64,000 nt of DNA from Marsupella aquatica (GCA_973895155.1 OZ316896.1:7635278-7699277); one strand, 5' to 3'; counted from the first letter of the stretch, positions 852-29,323 are shown. Notes: generated by a model from the sequence alone, not told the origin. A program made the numbers and translations.

Positions 852-1189
852 CACGTATTGAGGAATTTAGGGAGAAATGTTTTACCAACGCCTAGCGCTA
901 GTACCAACTTGTATTCGATTCCTCTCATTGGGTCCTTATAAATTAATGTCTCATTACTTGTGTTTTTTACAAGCGCCAGGCGCTCGCCAAATGGTGATTC
1001 ATAAAGCAAATATTTCCAGCTCTTATTTGTGTAACACGGCCGTTTGGTCTTTGTCGTGTCCTACCAACGGTCATCATAATGAGACAAATAGTAGGCAATA
1101 CATAGTATAATATACGTTTCGGATACCAACGGCCATTTCATTTAGGTCCGTTAGTTTGCCAAGGAAACCCACATGGACTGTATTTGGAT

Positions 1190-1470
1190 GATATTTTTGG
1201 ATCTCTCGGATTACATTTCCGTATCTCTTGTTGACAACATTTCTCTAAGACATTTTTGGATCTCTTGTTGACGGCATCTCTCTCGGACGACATTTTTGGA
1301 TCTCTTGTTGACGACAATTTTCAAGGATGACACTTGTCGCGGATGGCAAGTTTTCGGACCGACGACTGTTTTGGGACCGACGACCGTCTTCTCTGACGAC
1401 ACTTTTCGCGCACTTCAATTCTTGTAGTCGACAGTTTTTGGGCCCACGACCGTTTGCGGACCTTTTGCGG
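1190..1470. repeat. Subterminal tandem repeats (TTTTGGATCTCTTGTTGAC and GGACCGACGAC units)
   Basis: Repeated units are visible directly and are mirrored at ~13560-13830. Confidence 0.75.
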
Positions 1471-1614
1471 AAGATATAGTTCGGGCATTGTCGTGATTTT
1501 CTCTTAAGTTATAAAAACATTGTTTGTTTTAATATGTTATAGATTATATAAGTAGTTTAGTAGTTAGATTATTAAATTTAGACTTTATTAACTTCTTTAG
1601 CTATATTAACGGAC

Positions 1615-1875
1615 TACAGTAGTTTCACCAATACATATGAGTAGTTCTACCAACGCACAATAGTTCTGCCAACGCACAGTAGGTCCACTAACGCATACTA
1701 GTTCCACCAACGCATACTAGTTCCACCAACGCATAGTAGTTCCACCAACGCATAGTAGGACCACCAAAGCACAGTAGTTCCACCAACGCATAGTAGGTCC
1801 ACCAATGCACAGTAGTTCCACCAACGCATGGTAGTTCCACCTACTAAAAGTAGTTTCACCAACTATGAACAGTAC
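1615..1875. repeat. Minisatellite, ~19-21 bp unit TAGTTCCACCAACGCA(T/C)AG
   Basis: About a dozen head-to-tail degenerate copies with no unique spacers. Confidence 0.9.
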
Positions 1876-2720
1876 TAGCACACTCTTAGGTATTTGATGC
1901 TTGCCACTTGGCCTTCATCCAAGTGCTTGGGCTTGATCCATGCCCTCTTGGTGTGCACTATAAATAATTAAAGTGGTGAGGGGCACTCTCCCCTCATTTC
2001 GCAGTGTTTATCATTCAAGATTGTGAAGCTTTTTGCGCCTTAACATAGTAGTGGGGCATCCTTTGGCCTGGATAGCAAAGAAATAGGAGAGTCATCATGA
2101 ATCTAGGAGAGAGAGTTATCCCTGATCTTCCCCTTCGTAATCCGTTTTTAATTAGAGTCCATCTTTTAGACAAACGATCCATGAGGCAACACTTAACCTA
2201 TTATTTTGGAACTCAGTTTGCAACTGTTGTTATGGCTTTAAATGAGCCAATAGTATACCCAGTAGTGTCGTACCGAGAAGAGTGAGAGTGCATTATCTTT
2301 GTCCTTTATTGAAGTCATGGATCTAAATAGGAGTCCAGATGATATTCCTGTTTCATTTTCTCTTGAAGATATTAGGATCATATGTTGTAAGAAAACTAAT
2401 TTTTGTGATGTGTTGGTCCGCAAGTATGGTGAAGTAGGGTTTAACAGTATTTTAGTTTCACTTGAACCTTTCTTAATACCCACTACCCTTGTTACTAGAA
2501 TTATCATTTTGGTTTTAGTGTAGAACTTATGGGCATGCAAAGTTAACTTTATAAGAGCCAACATGCTCTTACCAAAAAACACGGTCACCCGGACAGCGTT
2601 TTGCGAGAGACATTTTTTGCGGACCTCTTCTTTCGGACCCACGACCGTTTGCGAACCTTTTGCAGACAATTTTTGCGTTCTTTCAATGGGAAAGTTGATC
2701 TTGATTGGGCTCTATTCAAC

Positions 2721-3133
2721 ATGGAGAGAAACGGTGAGCTCATGGATTGGGAGGCAACGTTCCTCCGTTCTTGTGTGCGTCCGGAAGAGAGCCATTTCAA
2801 TTCTTTTGAGTCACGGATGGAGACTGAAGAGACTGAAACCTCTACTTTCCAGAACCGTCACGCTCTACCATATGATGAGGCTATTAGTCCTAGAGAAAAG
2901 AACATCTTGTGGATCGTCAATTCTCCTTTGCTCCCATTCGCAAGCAGGTTCTCGTCTCATCAGGCTGTTTCTGTTGATGATGTACTGCCAATCAATAGGA
3001 GAGTTCAAGAAATGTTTGGGCGAGTTGCCAATCAATAGGAGAGTTCAAGAAATGTGGACAGTAATATTCCCAATGAAGGTTTTACAAGGGCAGTGCGTTG
3101 GGGTCCTTCTGAGAGATACATTTGATTGCGTGG
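2721..3133 (+). pseudogene. Disrupted copy of the small MULE cargo ORF (homologue of 12998..13459)
   Basis: MERNGELMDWEA... matches 12998..13459. It has a ~30 bp internal duplication at 2986-3056 and is truncated by the insertion at 3134. Confidence 0.7.
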
Positions 3134-26602: not shown

Positions 26603-26955
26603 GTTTTTGGGATTTGCGTGCTCCATGGTTGGAACCATTGAGAGGTCCAAATGGTCTAGATTTGAGTAAATTGAAAAAAGATATTCAACCTTGGCAAGAA
26701 CGACGATCTGAAGAATATATGACTCATACTCCCCCAGGATCCCTTAATTCTGTAGGTGGGGTAGCTACTGAAATTAATGTCGTTAATTACGTGTCCCCTC
26801 GAAGTTGGTTATCAACATCACATTTTGTGTTAGGTTTCTTCTTCTTTATTGGACATTTATGGCATGCAGGAAGAGCACGTGCTGCAGCTGCTGGATTTGA
26901 AAAGGGAATCAACCATAATTTTGAACCAGTTCTTTCAATGACACCTCTTAATTAA
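26603..26955 (+). pseudogene. psbC: Photosystem II CP43 C-terminal fragment
   Basis: [35 protein letters not shown]...[19 protein letters not shown]...[10 protein letters not shown]. Confidence 0.97.
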
Positions 26956-27038
26956 AAGTTAATAGCGAATGAAAAATAAGTGAAAAAGATATTATATTTT
27001 TAATATCTTTCTTACTTGAAGATGTACTTTCAATAAAA

Positions 27039-27124
27039 GGAAAGAGAGGGATTCGAACCCTTGATATTTTTAAAACTATATCGGTTTTCAAGACCGACGC
27101 CATGAACCACTCGGCCATCTTTCC
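27039..27124 (-). tRNA. trnS-UGA: Plastid-derived tRNA-Ser(UGA), probably a non-functional NUPT copy
   Basis: Reverse complement GGAAAGATGGCCGAGTGGTT...GTCTTGAAAACCG...GGGTTCGAATCCCTCTCTTTCC. Long variable arm, and the canonical position between psbC and psbZ. Confidence 0.9.
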
Positions 27125-27250
27125 AAAAGAAATGAGAACAAATTTAAGTTATTAAGTTCATCAAGATGTTATTCCATAATATGAACTTTTATATATATTA
27201 TTATTATCGTAAATATTAATTACTATAATAAAACTTGGAGAATTACAAGT

Positions 27251-27325
27251 ATGACTATAGCTTTCTAGTTGGTTGTATTTGCATTAATTGCTATTTCTTT
27301 CCTATTAGTTATTGGTGTACCCGTT
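27251..27325 (+). pseudogene. psbZ: psbZ 5' fragment with premature stop
   Basis: MTIAF*LVVFALIAISFLLVIGVPV; codon 6 reads TAG where Gln is expected. Confidence 0.9.
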
Positions 27326-29323
27326 ACTGTAGTTGCTAAATATATTTATTTGTTTCCGATGACAGAGCAAGAGTGTTGAGGAGGCAGGTATGATTCCGAA
27401 TTGTACTGGTTTGAAATCGGTCCATGCAAGCATGAAGGCGTGGCCAATGAAGAAGCGGGTTGGCCTCATGGAGGGATGCAAAACTGACCAAAACCGAGCC
27501 GTATGTCAGATCGCAGCTTATACTGCATACGGTCAAGGATTACATCAGGGAACTGGACCCACTATCTTTGAGTTGGCTTTCAGATCTGCGGACATGACAG
27601 GGTCTCCACGTCTATTTGAAGAAGCGACTAATCTCCTTCTTTCCAACGCAGCTGAATTTGATTTGGAAAGAACTGTTCCGTTGAATGGAGACGTCATCAC
27701 TCGATCGGTGAAACGAAAAGGTAATGCAAGTGGGAATGTCTCGGCACAAGACTCTCACAGGCATGATACTATCCTTGTGACTTCACCAAATACAAGGGGT
27801 TTGAAGAGGAGAAACCTCCATTCCATAGACTTTGAGAAGATGTCTTCCACACCTTCTGTTGGTGGAAGTAGTGTCGTTAATTTGTCTCAAACTGAGAGTG
27901 AAGATTCTGAGGAAGTCGTCATCCTTGAGACACCCTCACGTTGAACGACAAGATCTTCTGTTCCTCCCGTCAGACATGAAGCTGGGGCCGCGCCTGAGGA
28001 ATCTCTTCTCCCGATGGAAATTGACATAGCTCCAGGTCTCTGGCAGCTCCGACAAACTGCAAAACGTGGTGTTGGTCTAGCTTGTAATGGGACCCTCGGT
28101 TGGAGAGGAAGCCGCGATGAATGTCACAATCGAGTAAAGAAGGTTGGGTTTCCAAATCCATAAGGAGTTGTCGCAACATCTGTAAGAGGATGTAGACTTT
28201 TTAGAGGAGAACCTCATCCGGACCAGATATGGTTTTTCCCAAACAACAAATGTCACAAAAATCGGCCAAGAAGAGGTGTTTCAAACATTCCCAATATACC
28301 ACCCGTTCTTCCCATTGTGAGAGGGACCAATCTCCAGGAGGGCGAGATCCAATTCTTGAGAGAACAAGGTCTAATTGGTACAAGAGAGGTAAGGGAATGT
28401 CAGGAGCCATCCCCGTCTGAGTTGCGCATCGATGTGAATTTGTTCCAAGAGAGGATCAATTTAGCGGACCCAGCTTTTAGATGTGGCTCCAGGAATGGAA
28501 GAAAGTGCTTGCAGGGAGTGAATCTAACTCAAACACATTACAACAAGATCGAAGCATCCGAAACAGAAGTAATGAGACTCGTATGCGAGAGAGATGTCAC
28601 AAGTGGGAATGCGTGGGGGAAGCAGTATTGTATCAGAACACATGAACATGAGAGGACTATTGCCTCTTATTGGGTGCAGATTTGTTGTTTCCCTTGCTGT
28701 TCATGTGAGGATTTCTATCGGAGGCACATTTATAGGAAACCTTACATGCCTTGCAAACATCTACATTGGGTATTCAGGACTGTGTTGAAGTTAAGTCTTC
28801 ACGATTCGACACTATCTAGTCAACCAGTTCTGACATTGGGCGAAGTCCGTTACCTACTTGATCGACAAAATGGAACGGACATGTAGTCAATTTGGTGTCG
28901 TTCAACAACTTTAAGTGGCATTTGTCTTTTCTAACGGGCAAAAGATGTACCCGTTTCTTATCCAAAAATATGTGTTGTCTGTTGCTAGCGCCTGGCACTA
29001 GCCAAAATTTGCAACAGATAGCAAATATATTGACAGTTAAATAAAGCGCGTCTTCTTATAATGACCTCTATATTGCCCGTTATTTATCATTGAATGGTGG
29101 GCCCCATTATGTTAGCATTTCAGAGAGCGCTTATATGGTTGTTGTTTTTTAAAATGGAGCCCTTTTTGTCAACTTTGAATAACCTATAAAACTCATACAA
29201 GTAAATAGTTTCTCGTATGAGTAAACAGATTTTCTGCTATGAGTAATTGAATTACTCGTATGAGTAAATTTTTGCTCGTAACAGCAAATCTATTTACTAT
29301 TTGCTGTCACGGTGGTTATACCC

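Follow-up and report, generated by a model that had tools for sequence, protein, structure and literature searches.

Dispersed palindromes on a Mutator-type element of Marsupella aquatica: candidate loading sites for a ParB-like cargo protein with a probably inactive methylase fold

Among the systems closest to the one described here, namely a Mutator-type element with dispersed palindromes and a ParB-like cargo gene in a 64,000-nucleotide stretch of Marsupella aquatica DNA (GCA_973895155.1 OZ316896.1:7635278-7699277; "the window" hereafter, meaning this entire stretch), are the VANDAL elements of Arabidopsis, in which binding by the element's own VANC protein, as well as demethylation, has been experimentally shown, the bound motifs being 8-9 bp long, non-palindromic and often tandem (PMC5735166). 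VANDAL has been named the sole transposon known to bind and modify its own sequence in a paper which also describes giant Plavaka (EnSpm) transposons of Bostrychia moritziana, with tandem inverted-repeat arrays beside ParB-like PAG3 genes, proposes self-binding and modification for them, and reports ParB-like accessory genes on Mutator elements of Chondrus, too (10.1101/2025.02.11.637652). In Ectocarpus, the element Sola1-1_Ec32 encodes, on the strand opposite its transposase, a 1104-amino-acid (aa) accessory protein with ParB-like and N4C/N6A methyltransferase parts, and self-binding and self-modification have been proposed here as well (PMC12477816). KorB, VirB and BisD combine a ParB N-terminal fold with palindromic loading sites on a mobile element and long-range gene control, with VirB acting as an anti-silencer and KorB reading its operator via a central helix-turn-helix (HTH) and repressing from dispersed palindromic operators (PMC13768133). 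ParB-HTH methylase fusions have been listed in chlorophytes and chytrids (PMC4738411), and the Marchantia enzyme DN4MT1 is a host methylase with an intact TSPPY motif, the text of that paper being free of the word "ParB" (10.1101/2021.02.12.428880). Finally, the AtMu1 transposase gives chromatin immunoprecipitation (ChIP) peaks on AtMu1 copies at their terminal inverted repeats (TIRs), in a paper covering TnpA and AtMu1 (10.64898/2026.08.24.746577).

In the Marsupella window, the 15-bp palindrome TAGCGCCNGGCGCTA has 17 matches at up to three mismatches in 64 kb, compared with 0.65 expected, and none of 100 shuffled window sequences reached 17 matches. In their simplest reading, these sites have the appearance of targets for a dimeric protein encoded by the element. 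More specifically, we regard them as candidate loading sites for the ParB-pseudomethylase cargo protein of the element, acting in VANC-like self-recognition or anti-silencing, a reading whose probability we put at roughly one half. By quality of match, the copies are as follows:

16000, 18615, 18960, 24155 and 26537: perfect sites
12 of the 15 near copies: sites with one to three mismatches
12780 and 17520: sites with four mismatches
26465: site with a one-base insertion and mismatches

A first-pass annotation of this DNA had placed the five perfect copies at exactly these coordinates and had added 15 near ones; 17 of its 20 coordinates match at three or fewer mismatches, while the other three are more degenerate. 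Its count of about 20 copies was right about the enrichment, but the distinct positions number 18, all within 12339-29323. Namely, sites 886 and 971 lie within an inverted copy of 13626-15014 and therefore repeat 14110 and 14026. When a symmetric 23-bp matrix is trained on 17 of the sites, which are thus scored in-sample, 19 sites come out at 19.1-33.2 bits and the next-best position in the window at 7.3 bits. Given this gap (at least 19.1 versus at most 7.3 bits), there is no genuine site past 29000, exactly as had been claimed, and the matrix scan finds no palindrome site in the 44 kb of remaining window DNA. Chance, or an artefact of composition, could be argued for from the three matches with four mismatches that arise elsewhere in the window (5806, 38063 and 43823). 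However, these score 3.5 bits or less, and the explanation, whose probability we hold to be negligible, is refuted by the shuffled sequences and by the lack of any other comparably recurrent palindrome family in the window: among families with 5-bp arms, the motif's own arms occur in 9 and 8 copies, and every other family in 4 or fewer.

The palindrome consensus extends symmetrically to approximately 23 bp. In particular, the base two positions outside the 15-mer is a purine in 34 of 34 half-sites, and the one four positions outside is A/T in 32 of 34, while within the 15-mer A2 and G3 are invariant in 34 half-sites and the centre base is unconstrained (A7 C5 G4 T3). The best-conserved positions lie outside CCNGG. 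The earlier remark that the flanks differ among copies while often extending the symmetry is therefore accurate as regards the more distant flanks, which are unrelated, but the extension itself is far from random. The 40-nt flanks of the sites have a mean identity of 0.317, as opposed to 0.288 in controls, which is near random. Since the flanks beyond 23 bp are unrelated, we reject the idea, raised as a possibility in the first-pass annotation, that the motif is the core of a miniature inverted-repeat transposable element (MITE) with shared flanks. What is more, internal positions show no compensatory changes, and this, together with the symmetry of the information beyond the 15-mer, argues for a site read as sequence and not as a hairpin. 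In our view, an origin from the remains of a tiny MITE or hairpin repeat, a role as RNA stem-loops and binding by a host factor are together quite unlikely. For such readings speak the intron 2 palindrome, which could fold as a 9-bp stem with a 3-base loop, and the best flank pair, which is 46% identical, a value reached in 4.7% of 300 controls; against them speak the unshared flanks, the presence of sites in promoters and near the ends as well as in introns, their absence from the other 44 kb, and the folding of the introns, which is ordinary (z of -1.7, -0.1 and -1.1) and led us to reject the stem-loop reading. A resemblance of the palindrome arms to the KorB operator was deemed coincidental, and a search of viral contigs with the extended motif gave three loci with one copy each, which we take as chance.

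The sites are best understood in relation to the element that carries them, whose principal parts are the following:

12339..19927, fragment B1: left end, cargo gene, divergent promoter and truncated transposase 1; 12 sites
14159..18342, minus strand: ParB-like / methyltransferase-fold cargo gene, with inferred exons 18342-17591, 17468-16135, 15943-15239, 15148-14576 and 14468-14159
19315..19927, plus strand: transposase 1, cut down to its N-terminal 204 aa, in head-to-head orientation with the cargo gene
19928..29323, fragment B2: cut Ulp1 gene, NIF phosphatase gene, an unidentified minus-strand open reading frame (ORF), transposase 2 and right end; 6 sites
24404..28886, plus strand: transposase 2, Mutator-type, broken, with a DD core, DAFH at the CxxH position, a SWIM-like C-terminus and an intron at 26356-27367
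1..3134, plus strand: partial inverted copy A, with the 3' end of the cargo gene and downstream DNA; B1 family

Within these parts, the sites are distributed as follows:

886..985: sites 886 and 971 (degenerate), in partial copy A, equal to 14110 and 14026
12780..12917: sites 12780 and 12903, 441 and 564 bp inside the left end
14026..14124: sites 14026 and 14110, just beyond the stop of the cargo gene
16000..16108: sites 16000 (perfect) and 16094, in cargo gene intron 2 (15944-16134)
17520..17534: degenerate site with four mismatches, in cargo gene intron 1 (17469-17590)
18615..19037: sites 18615, 18677, 18833, 18960 and 19023, in the divergent promoter shared by cargo gene and transposase 1
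24042..24169: sites 24042 and 24155 (perfect), upstream of transposase 2
26404..26551: sites 26404, 26465 (one-base insertion) and 26537 (perfect), in the transposase 2 intron
28986..29000: site 28986, downstream of transposase 2 and 323 bp inside the right end

As had been noticed before, none of the sites falls in an inferred exon: all 18 are non-coding, although the non-coding share of 12339-29323 is only 29% to 41%, depending on the mask (p = 5e-5 to 9e-4, if one counts 8 clusters instead of 18 sites). That said, any motif arising de novo would spare codons, and hence this confinement tells us which places are tolerated and not what the sites do. Two of the four cargo gene introns, 1 and 2, bear a site, so that the description of the sites as intronic in this gene applies to half of its introns. 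Similarly, sites do come near both ends (441 and 323 bp inside), but the terminal stretches themselves lack the motif, with best palindrome matches of 6-7 mismatches in the terminal 430 bp on the left and 320 bp on the right. The stretch 19040-24040, covering the Ulp1 / NIF region, is palindrome-free.

In contigs from three public runs, 12339-29323 is covered far above the depth of the flanking single-copy stretch. While summed contig depth is not equal to copy number, this excess indicates a multi-copy family. The left end is 12339, as contigs joining host and element diverge at 12338 and the same end is joined elsewhere (21699 to 12339), and the right end is 29323, where a Copia-like RNase H frame resumes. 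The Ulp1 protease gene of B2 is C-terminally cut at approximately 19927, as is transposase 1, and B1 and B2 are likely two Mutator-type fragments fused at this point. For two fused insertions a target site duplication is not expected, and indeed none of 2-12 bp was matched at 12339/29323. GGG opens the ends of both B1 and B2, and a single 9-mer is common to them; beyond this their similarity is weak, and they probably belong to different subfamilies. Copy A is in its positions 1-1387 an inverted copy of 13626-15014, 92% identical, and 83% identical in 2629-3134.

Mutator (or MULE, for Mutator-like element) transposases are characterized by a DD core followed by a CxxH-type motif and by a SWIM-type zinc finger. 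By inspection, the series FD...MADN...DAFH is found in the window transposase and in all nine aligned homologs, while the distant homolog P0125 has CLFH and a C-terminal CxC-x14-CxH; a Pfam scan of the transposase returned no MULE or SWIM match. Homologous ORFs stop at the same intron positions as our window models, which supports the gene models. A transposase alignment scan of metagenome contigs gave 132 pattern matches and 0 confirmed ones, and a comparison of the transposase and cargo profiles revealed no similarity.

The cargo gene itself is broken in the window, exon 1 containing a stop and the frame shifting close to 15743 and 14830. However damaged in this copy, it is, to judge by its homologs, a real and conserved gene with liverwort relatives. 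Namely, searched against 1.84 billion representatives, exon 2 has 107 relatives with E of 0.001 or lower, and of ten clusters looked up, six gave named homologs, from the liverworts Riccia sorocarpa and Calypogeia fissa; a 1207-aa Riccia protein covers the ParB-like, middle and methylase parts. Further searches yielded less: among longer proteins, none of 363 candidates was an exon 1 homolog, alignment scans gave 17 matches to the cargo pattern in metagenome contigs and 43 to ParB in viral contigs with none confirmed in either, and sequence searches of the PDB were uninformative.

The N-terminus of the predicted protein contains a conserved DGNH(R/Q) motif. The structure model of exon 1 has a pLDDT of 69, and its best matches in both programs are, weakly, ParB, Noc, KorB, PadC and sulfiredoxin. 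In VIA, KorB is on top (best Z 4.4, rmsd 3.1 over 76 residues), and six of the top eight rows are titled ParB-like, sulfiredoxin-type or related kinase; in Foldseek, the top rows are ParB and Noc at E 0.09-0.11; and an Atlas search produced phage ParB_N + N6_N4 fusions with scores (0.82-0.83) that count as leads only. Taken together, these models weakly suggest a ParB/Srx fold. The middle region of 444 aa is modelled confidently as a helical domain (pLDDT 77); queried whole, it gave no HTH or other match above background in fold searches, and the Atlas search returned weak and discordant leads only. The last exon is rich in Arg/Lys and kept in frame in both copies (14159-14468 on the minus strand and 519-851 on the plus strand), which makes it a candidate DNA-binding or nuclear-import segment. 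As a separate observation, each of runs X1-X3 contains a well-covered contig form from which precisely the 90 bp of cargo intron 3 (15149-15238, palindrome-free) are missing (joint 15150-15243), which suggests that the family has gained or lost this intron.

The C-terminus aligns to DpnA (E 0.07) and to Pfam PF01555 (E 0.09 for the window copy). Active N4C/N6A methyltransferases carry the motif IV sequence (D/S/N)PP(Y/F). At this position, the window protein and its 64%-identical relative P0126 have YLPTG, without an acidic residue, and four Riccia proteins have DLPTG, DMPSG or DMPTG; in other words, (D/S/N)PP(Y/F) is seen in none of the five proteins that matched our motif IV pattern, nor in the window copy. 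As the relative shares the loss, it is not a matter of decay of this particular copy, and the methylase fold of the cargo protein is likely inactive. Would an active amino-methyltransferase, writing N4-methylcytosine (4mC) or N6-methyladenine (6mA) at or near the palindrome, nevertheless explain the sites? The Riccia homologs match Pfam N6_N4_Mtase (PF01555) at E 1e-5 to 5e-5, under the curated cut-off, the glycine-rich S-adenosylmethionine (SAM) loop of motif I, DWTAGAG, is retained in the window protein, the Ectocarpus protein is predicted to methylate, and a liverwort makes 4mC with other enzymes. Still, we deem this explanation very unlikely in view of motif IV and of the free centre base and invariant outer AG of the palindrome, which are unlike CCWGG or CCSGG targets. 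The specific proposal of the first-pass annotation that the sites are marked by N4-cytosine methylation at CCWGG/CCSGG is thus unsupported, given the eroded motif IV, conserved positions that lie outside CCNGG, and a pattern of decay at the sites that carries the signature of host 5-methylcytosine (5mC) in CG and CHG contexts (H being A, C or T). The broader part of that proposal, a dimeric element-encoded protein and preferably the cargo protein, agrees with the symmetry of the sites, their non-coding confinement, their apparent conservation and their avoidance of the termini.

The decay just mentioned concerns the mismatches inside the palindromes, 15 of 16 of which are C>T or G>A, as had been correctly noted: the 85 CG cytosines account for 7 C>T changes, the 38 in CHG for another 7 and the 67 in CHH for 1, the remaining mismatch being a transversion. 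By its context, this is the footprint of ordinary plant 5mC in a decaying copy. Family variation, on the other hand, was read from the collapsed contigs of the three public runs, the conservation test covering the promoter cluster and 40 listed of 56 variant positions. There, 3 listed variants fall in 75 core bases and 37 in 396 others (p = 0.09), the 23-bp footprint, chosen post hoc, gives p = 0.004, and none of 12 listed indels touches a site. In addition, 93-100% of the depth from other copies carries the consensus base at 19026 and 24046. These data lend weak to moderate support to the palindrome being better kept than its flanks across family copies. A side observation is that G>A at position 10 recurs at four C-centred sites (18686, 18842, 24164 and 26413), and is the majority form at two; the change could reflect a hotspot of CCG methylation or, alternatively, a second motif type that is also accepted, comparable to the two types known for VANC21.

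If a dimeric protein of the element does read the sites, the question is which one. One could argue for the transposase, or for a short N-terminal product of transposase 1, with the cargo gene unrelated, as a transposase and sites are present in B1 and B2 alike, no cargo gene is visible in B2, and a Mutator transposase alone can demethylate and activate cognate copies, according to the paper on TnpA and AtMu1 (10.64898/2026.08.24.746577). However, the ChIP peaks of the AtMu1 transposase lie at the TIRs, whereas the termini here lack the motif and what the B1 and B2 ends share is a different 9-mer. What is more, B1 and B2 have one motif in common despite transposase N-termini that are 43% identical over 176 columns, although the stretch compared may exclude the DNA-binding part. 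The absence of the motif from the termini, its presence with two diverged transposases and the AtMu1 precedent therefore disfavour the transposase, which we see as an unlikely reader. The cargo protein is favoured because of its putative ParB fold ancestry, as ParB-family proteins load at palindromes and VirB is an anti-silencer, and because of the algal precedent.

Even with the cargo protein as reader, its effect might be a different one: it may repress, or aid transposition structurally, through KorB-like autoregulation or by compacting and pairing the 17-kb element. Several observations would fit: five sites crowd into 420 bp of the divergent promoter shared by the cargo gene and transposase 1, forming the densest cluster; KorB, the top though weak VIA match, is a repressor acting at dispersed palindromic operators; and 5mC decay is seen at the sites themselves. 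Yet intronic and downstream sites across the whole element correspond to the VANC pattern, and the element retains more CG than most of its neighbours (CG/GC ratio 0.93, compared with 0.24-0.59 in five neighbouring transposon stretches), so that we consider a repressive or structural role doubtful. The control stretches included a CACTA/En-Spm transposase region on the minus strand (59637-63650; Transposase_21, DUF4218 and DUF4216) with an observed/expected CG of 0.23.

To return to the preferred reading, loading of the cargo protein in self-recognition or anti-silencing, a number of points weigh against it. The ParB fold match is weak (Z 4.4; Foldseek E 0.09) and covers the nucleotide-binding N-terminal fold, not an HTH; since KorB uses its central HTH, the part of the modelled cargo protein that would read DNA is the main gap. 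B2 has six sites and no cargo gene in its surviving part. The conservation signal may be biased by alignments that anchor on the motif, and the excess of depth over the sites is clear in only one of three runs (p = 0.003, 0.04 and 0.18). The sites of this copy are unprotected, as 14 of their 16 internal mismatches are C>T in CG/CHG context, and G>A at position 10 is found in other copies at 24164 (46-100% of depth), 18686 (16-46%) and 18842 (majority). Finally, the retention of CG is non-specific: a sixth, retroelement-like neighbour has a ratio of 0.95, and cargo exon 2 one of only 0.58.

With these points in mind, the mechanism we favour would run as follows. An element-encoded protein would read the sites as double-stranded DNA, and this reader would be the cargo protein, binding as a dimer and acting in trans on fragments such as B2. 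The outcome may be reduced host 5mC or promoter activation, as with VANC, achieved via occupancy or spreading, with no 4mC or 6mA being written. Wherever a new site leaves codons untouched it would become fixed, and this would account for the pattern of introns and spacers. In a more daring version, the protein could work as a domesticated bacterial sliding clamp of ParB/parS type, where a nucleotide-gated dimer loads at private palindromes set into each free non-coding stretch, with every family evolving an address word of its own, and spreads over the 17-kb element, its dead methylase fold shielding cytosines from the host's MET1/CMT. It would then play in a eukaryote the part that the anti-silencer VirB has in Shigella. 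We hold this version to be rather improbable.

Several further features of the window should be mentioned. A plastid-derived insert sits in the transposase 2 intron:

26602..27324, plus strand: 723 bp with the 3' end of psbC; no sites

This insert is skipped in other family copies, and a tRNA-like stretch that follows the psbC end was identified by eye; together with the 5mC signature, the insert points to a plant as host. B2 further contains cargo genes for a Ulp1 protease (E 7.5e-30) and a NIF phosphatase (E 1e-17) at 19782-22723, with contig depth below that of the ParB-like cargo and transposase genes. At three insertion junctions (12330-12338, 29324-29332 and the joint at 21699), AAC or AAT adjoins the element end, read inward, which hints at a target-site preference. 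Between the Mutator-type copies lies a 9-kb element (3123-12338) with unidentified ORFs and partial direct repeats (3123-4004 and 11656-12338). A 125-bp duplication at 10774 and 10899 has two GGCGCTA half-sites, and tandem arrays occur within copy A (19 bp, 1602-1901) and at 33673-34264 (158 bp).

What would follow if the preferred reading were true? Self-recognition would then have an independent solution, one borrowed from bacteria and consisting of a ParB-type protein with its defined 23-bp palindrome, and the combination of an explicit candidate site with liverwort homologs would make the published algal idea of self-binding directly testable. Should clamp-like spreading also be true, one would be dealing with a new kind of eukaryotic chromatin regulator and, possibly, with a tool for shielding transgenes from silencing. 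The weight of these statements is limited by the fact that the gene type and the hypothesis are in print, that the window copy is broken and that the pairing of site and protein is predicted from sequence.

In particular, self-recognition, as proposed in the first-pass annotation, is an idea already published for both algal elements: the gene type is that of Ectocarpus Sola1-1_Ec32, and ParB together with inverted repeats is the proposal made for Bostrychia Plavaka. Our literature search found no land-plant report of ParB-like cargo with palindromes, although the supplements of the algal papers may describe similar repeats. What is probably new here, therefore, is a Mutator element of a land plant that combines dispersed palindromes with a methylase that is probably dead, the published cases being algal.

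Compared with VANDAL/VANC, our locus likewise involves a Mutator-like element, an accessory protein and a short motif accumulated in intronic, intergenic and terminal non-coding DNA. The motif here, however, is a dispersed palindrome of approximately 23 bp, known from sequence alone, and Pfam scans of window and homolog ORFs gave no match suggesting VANC, with no direct comparison to VANC sequences made. With KorB, VirB and BisD, it may share a ParB-type N-terminal fold, matched weakly here, and it shares several palindromes on the same element, whereas the central HTH and CTP-dependent clamping are theirs and the present protein is known from sequence and models. DN4MT1 is similar in bringing a bacterial-type N4/N6 methylase fold to a liverwort, but is a host enzyme with TSPPY. 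Sola1-1_Ec32 has the same arrangement of a ParB-like and methyltransferase protein opposite the transposase, but it is a Sola and not a Mutator element, its enzyme is predicted to be active, and the main text is without the word "palindrom" (PMC12477816). Plavaka PAG3, finally, is alike in that an accessory gene whose N-terminus is ParB-like shares its element with inverted repeats. In that case, however, the repeats are tandem arrays by the gene and the second domain is a 2-oxoglutarate (2OG) oxygenase, whereas here single palindromes are dispersed in introns, promoters and spacers, the protein has a methylase fold, and the host is a plant, with homologs in liverworts.

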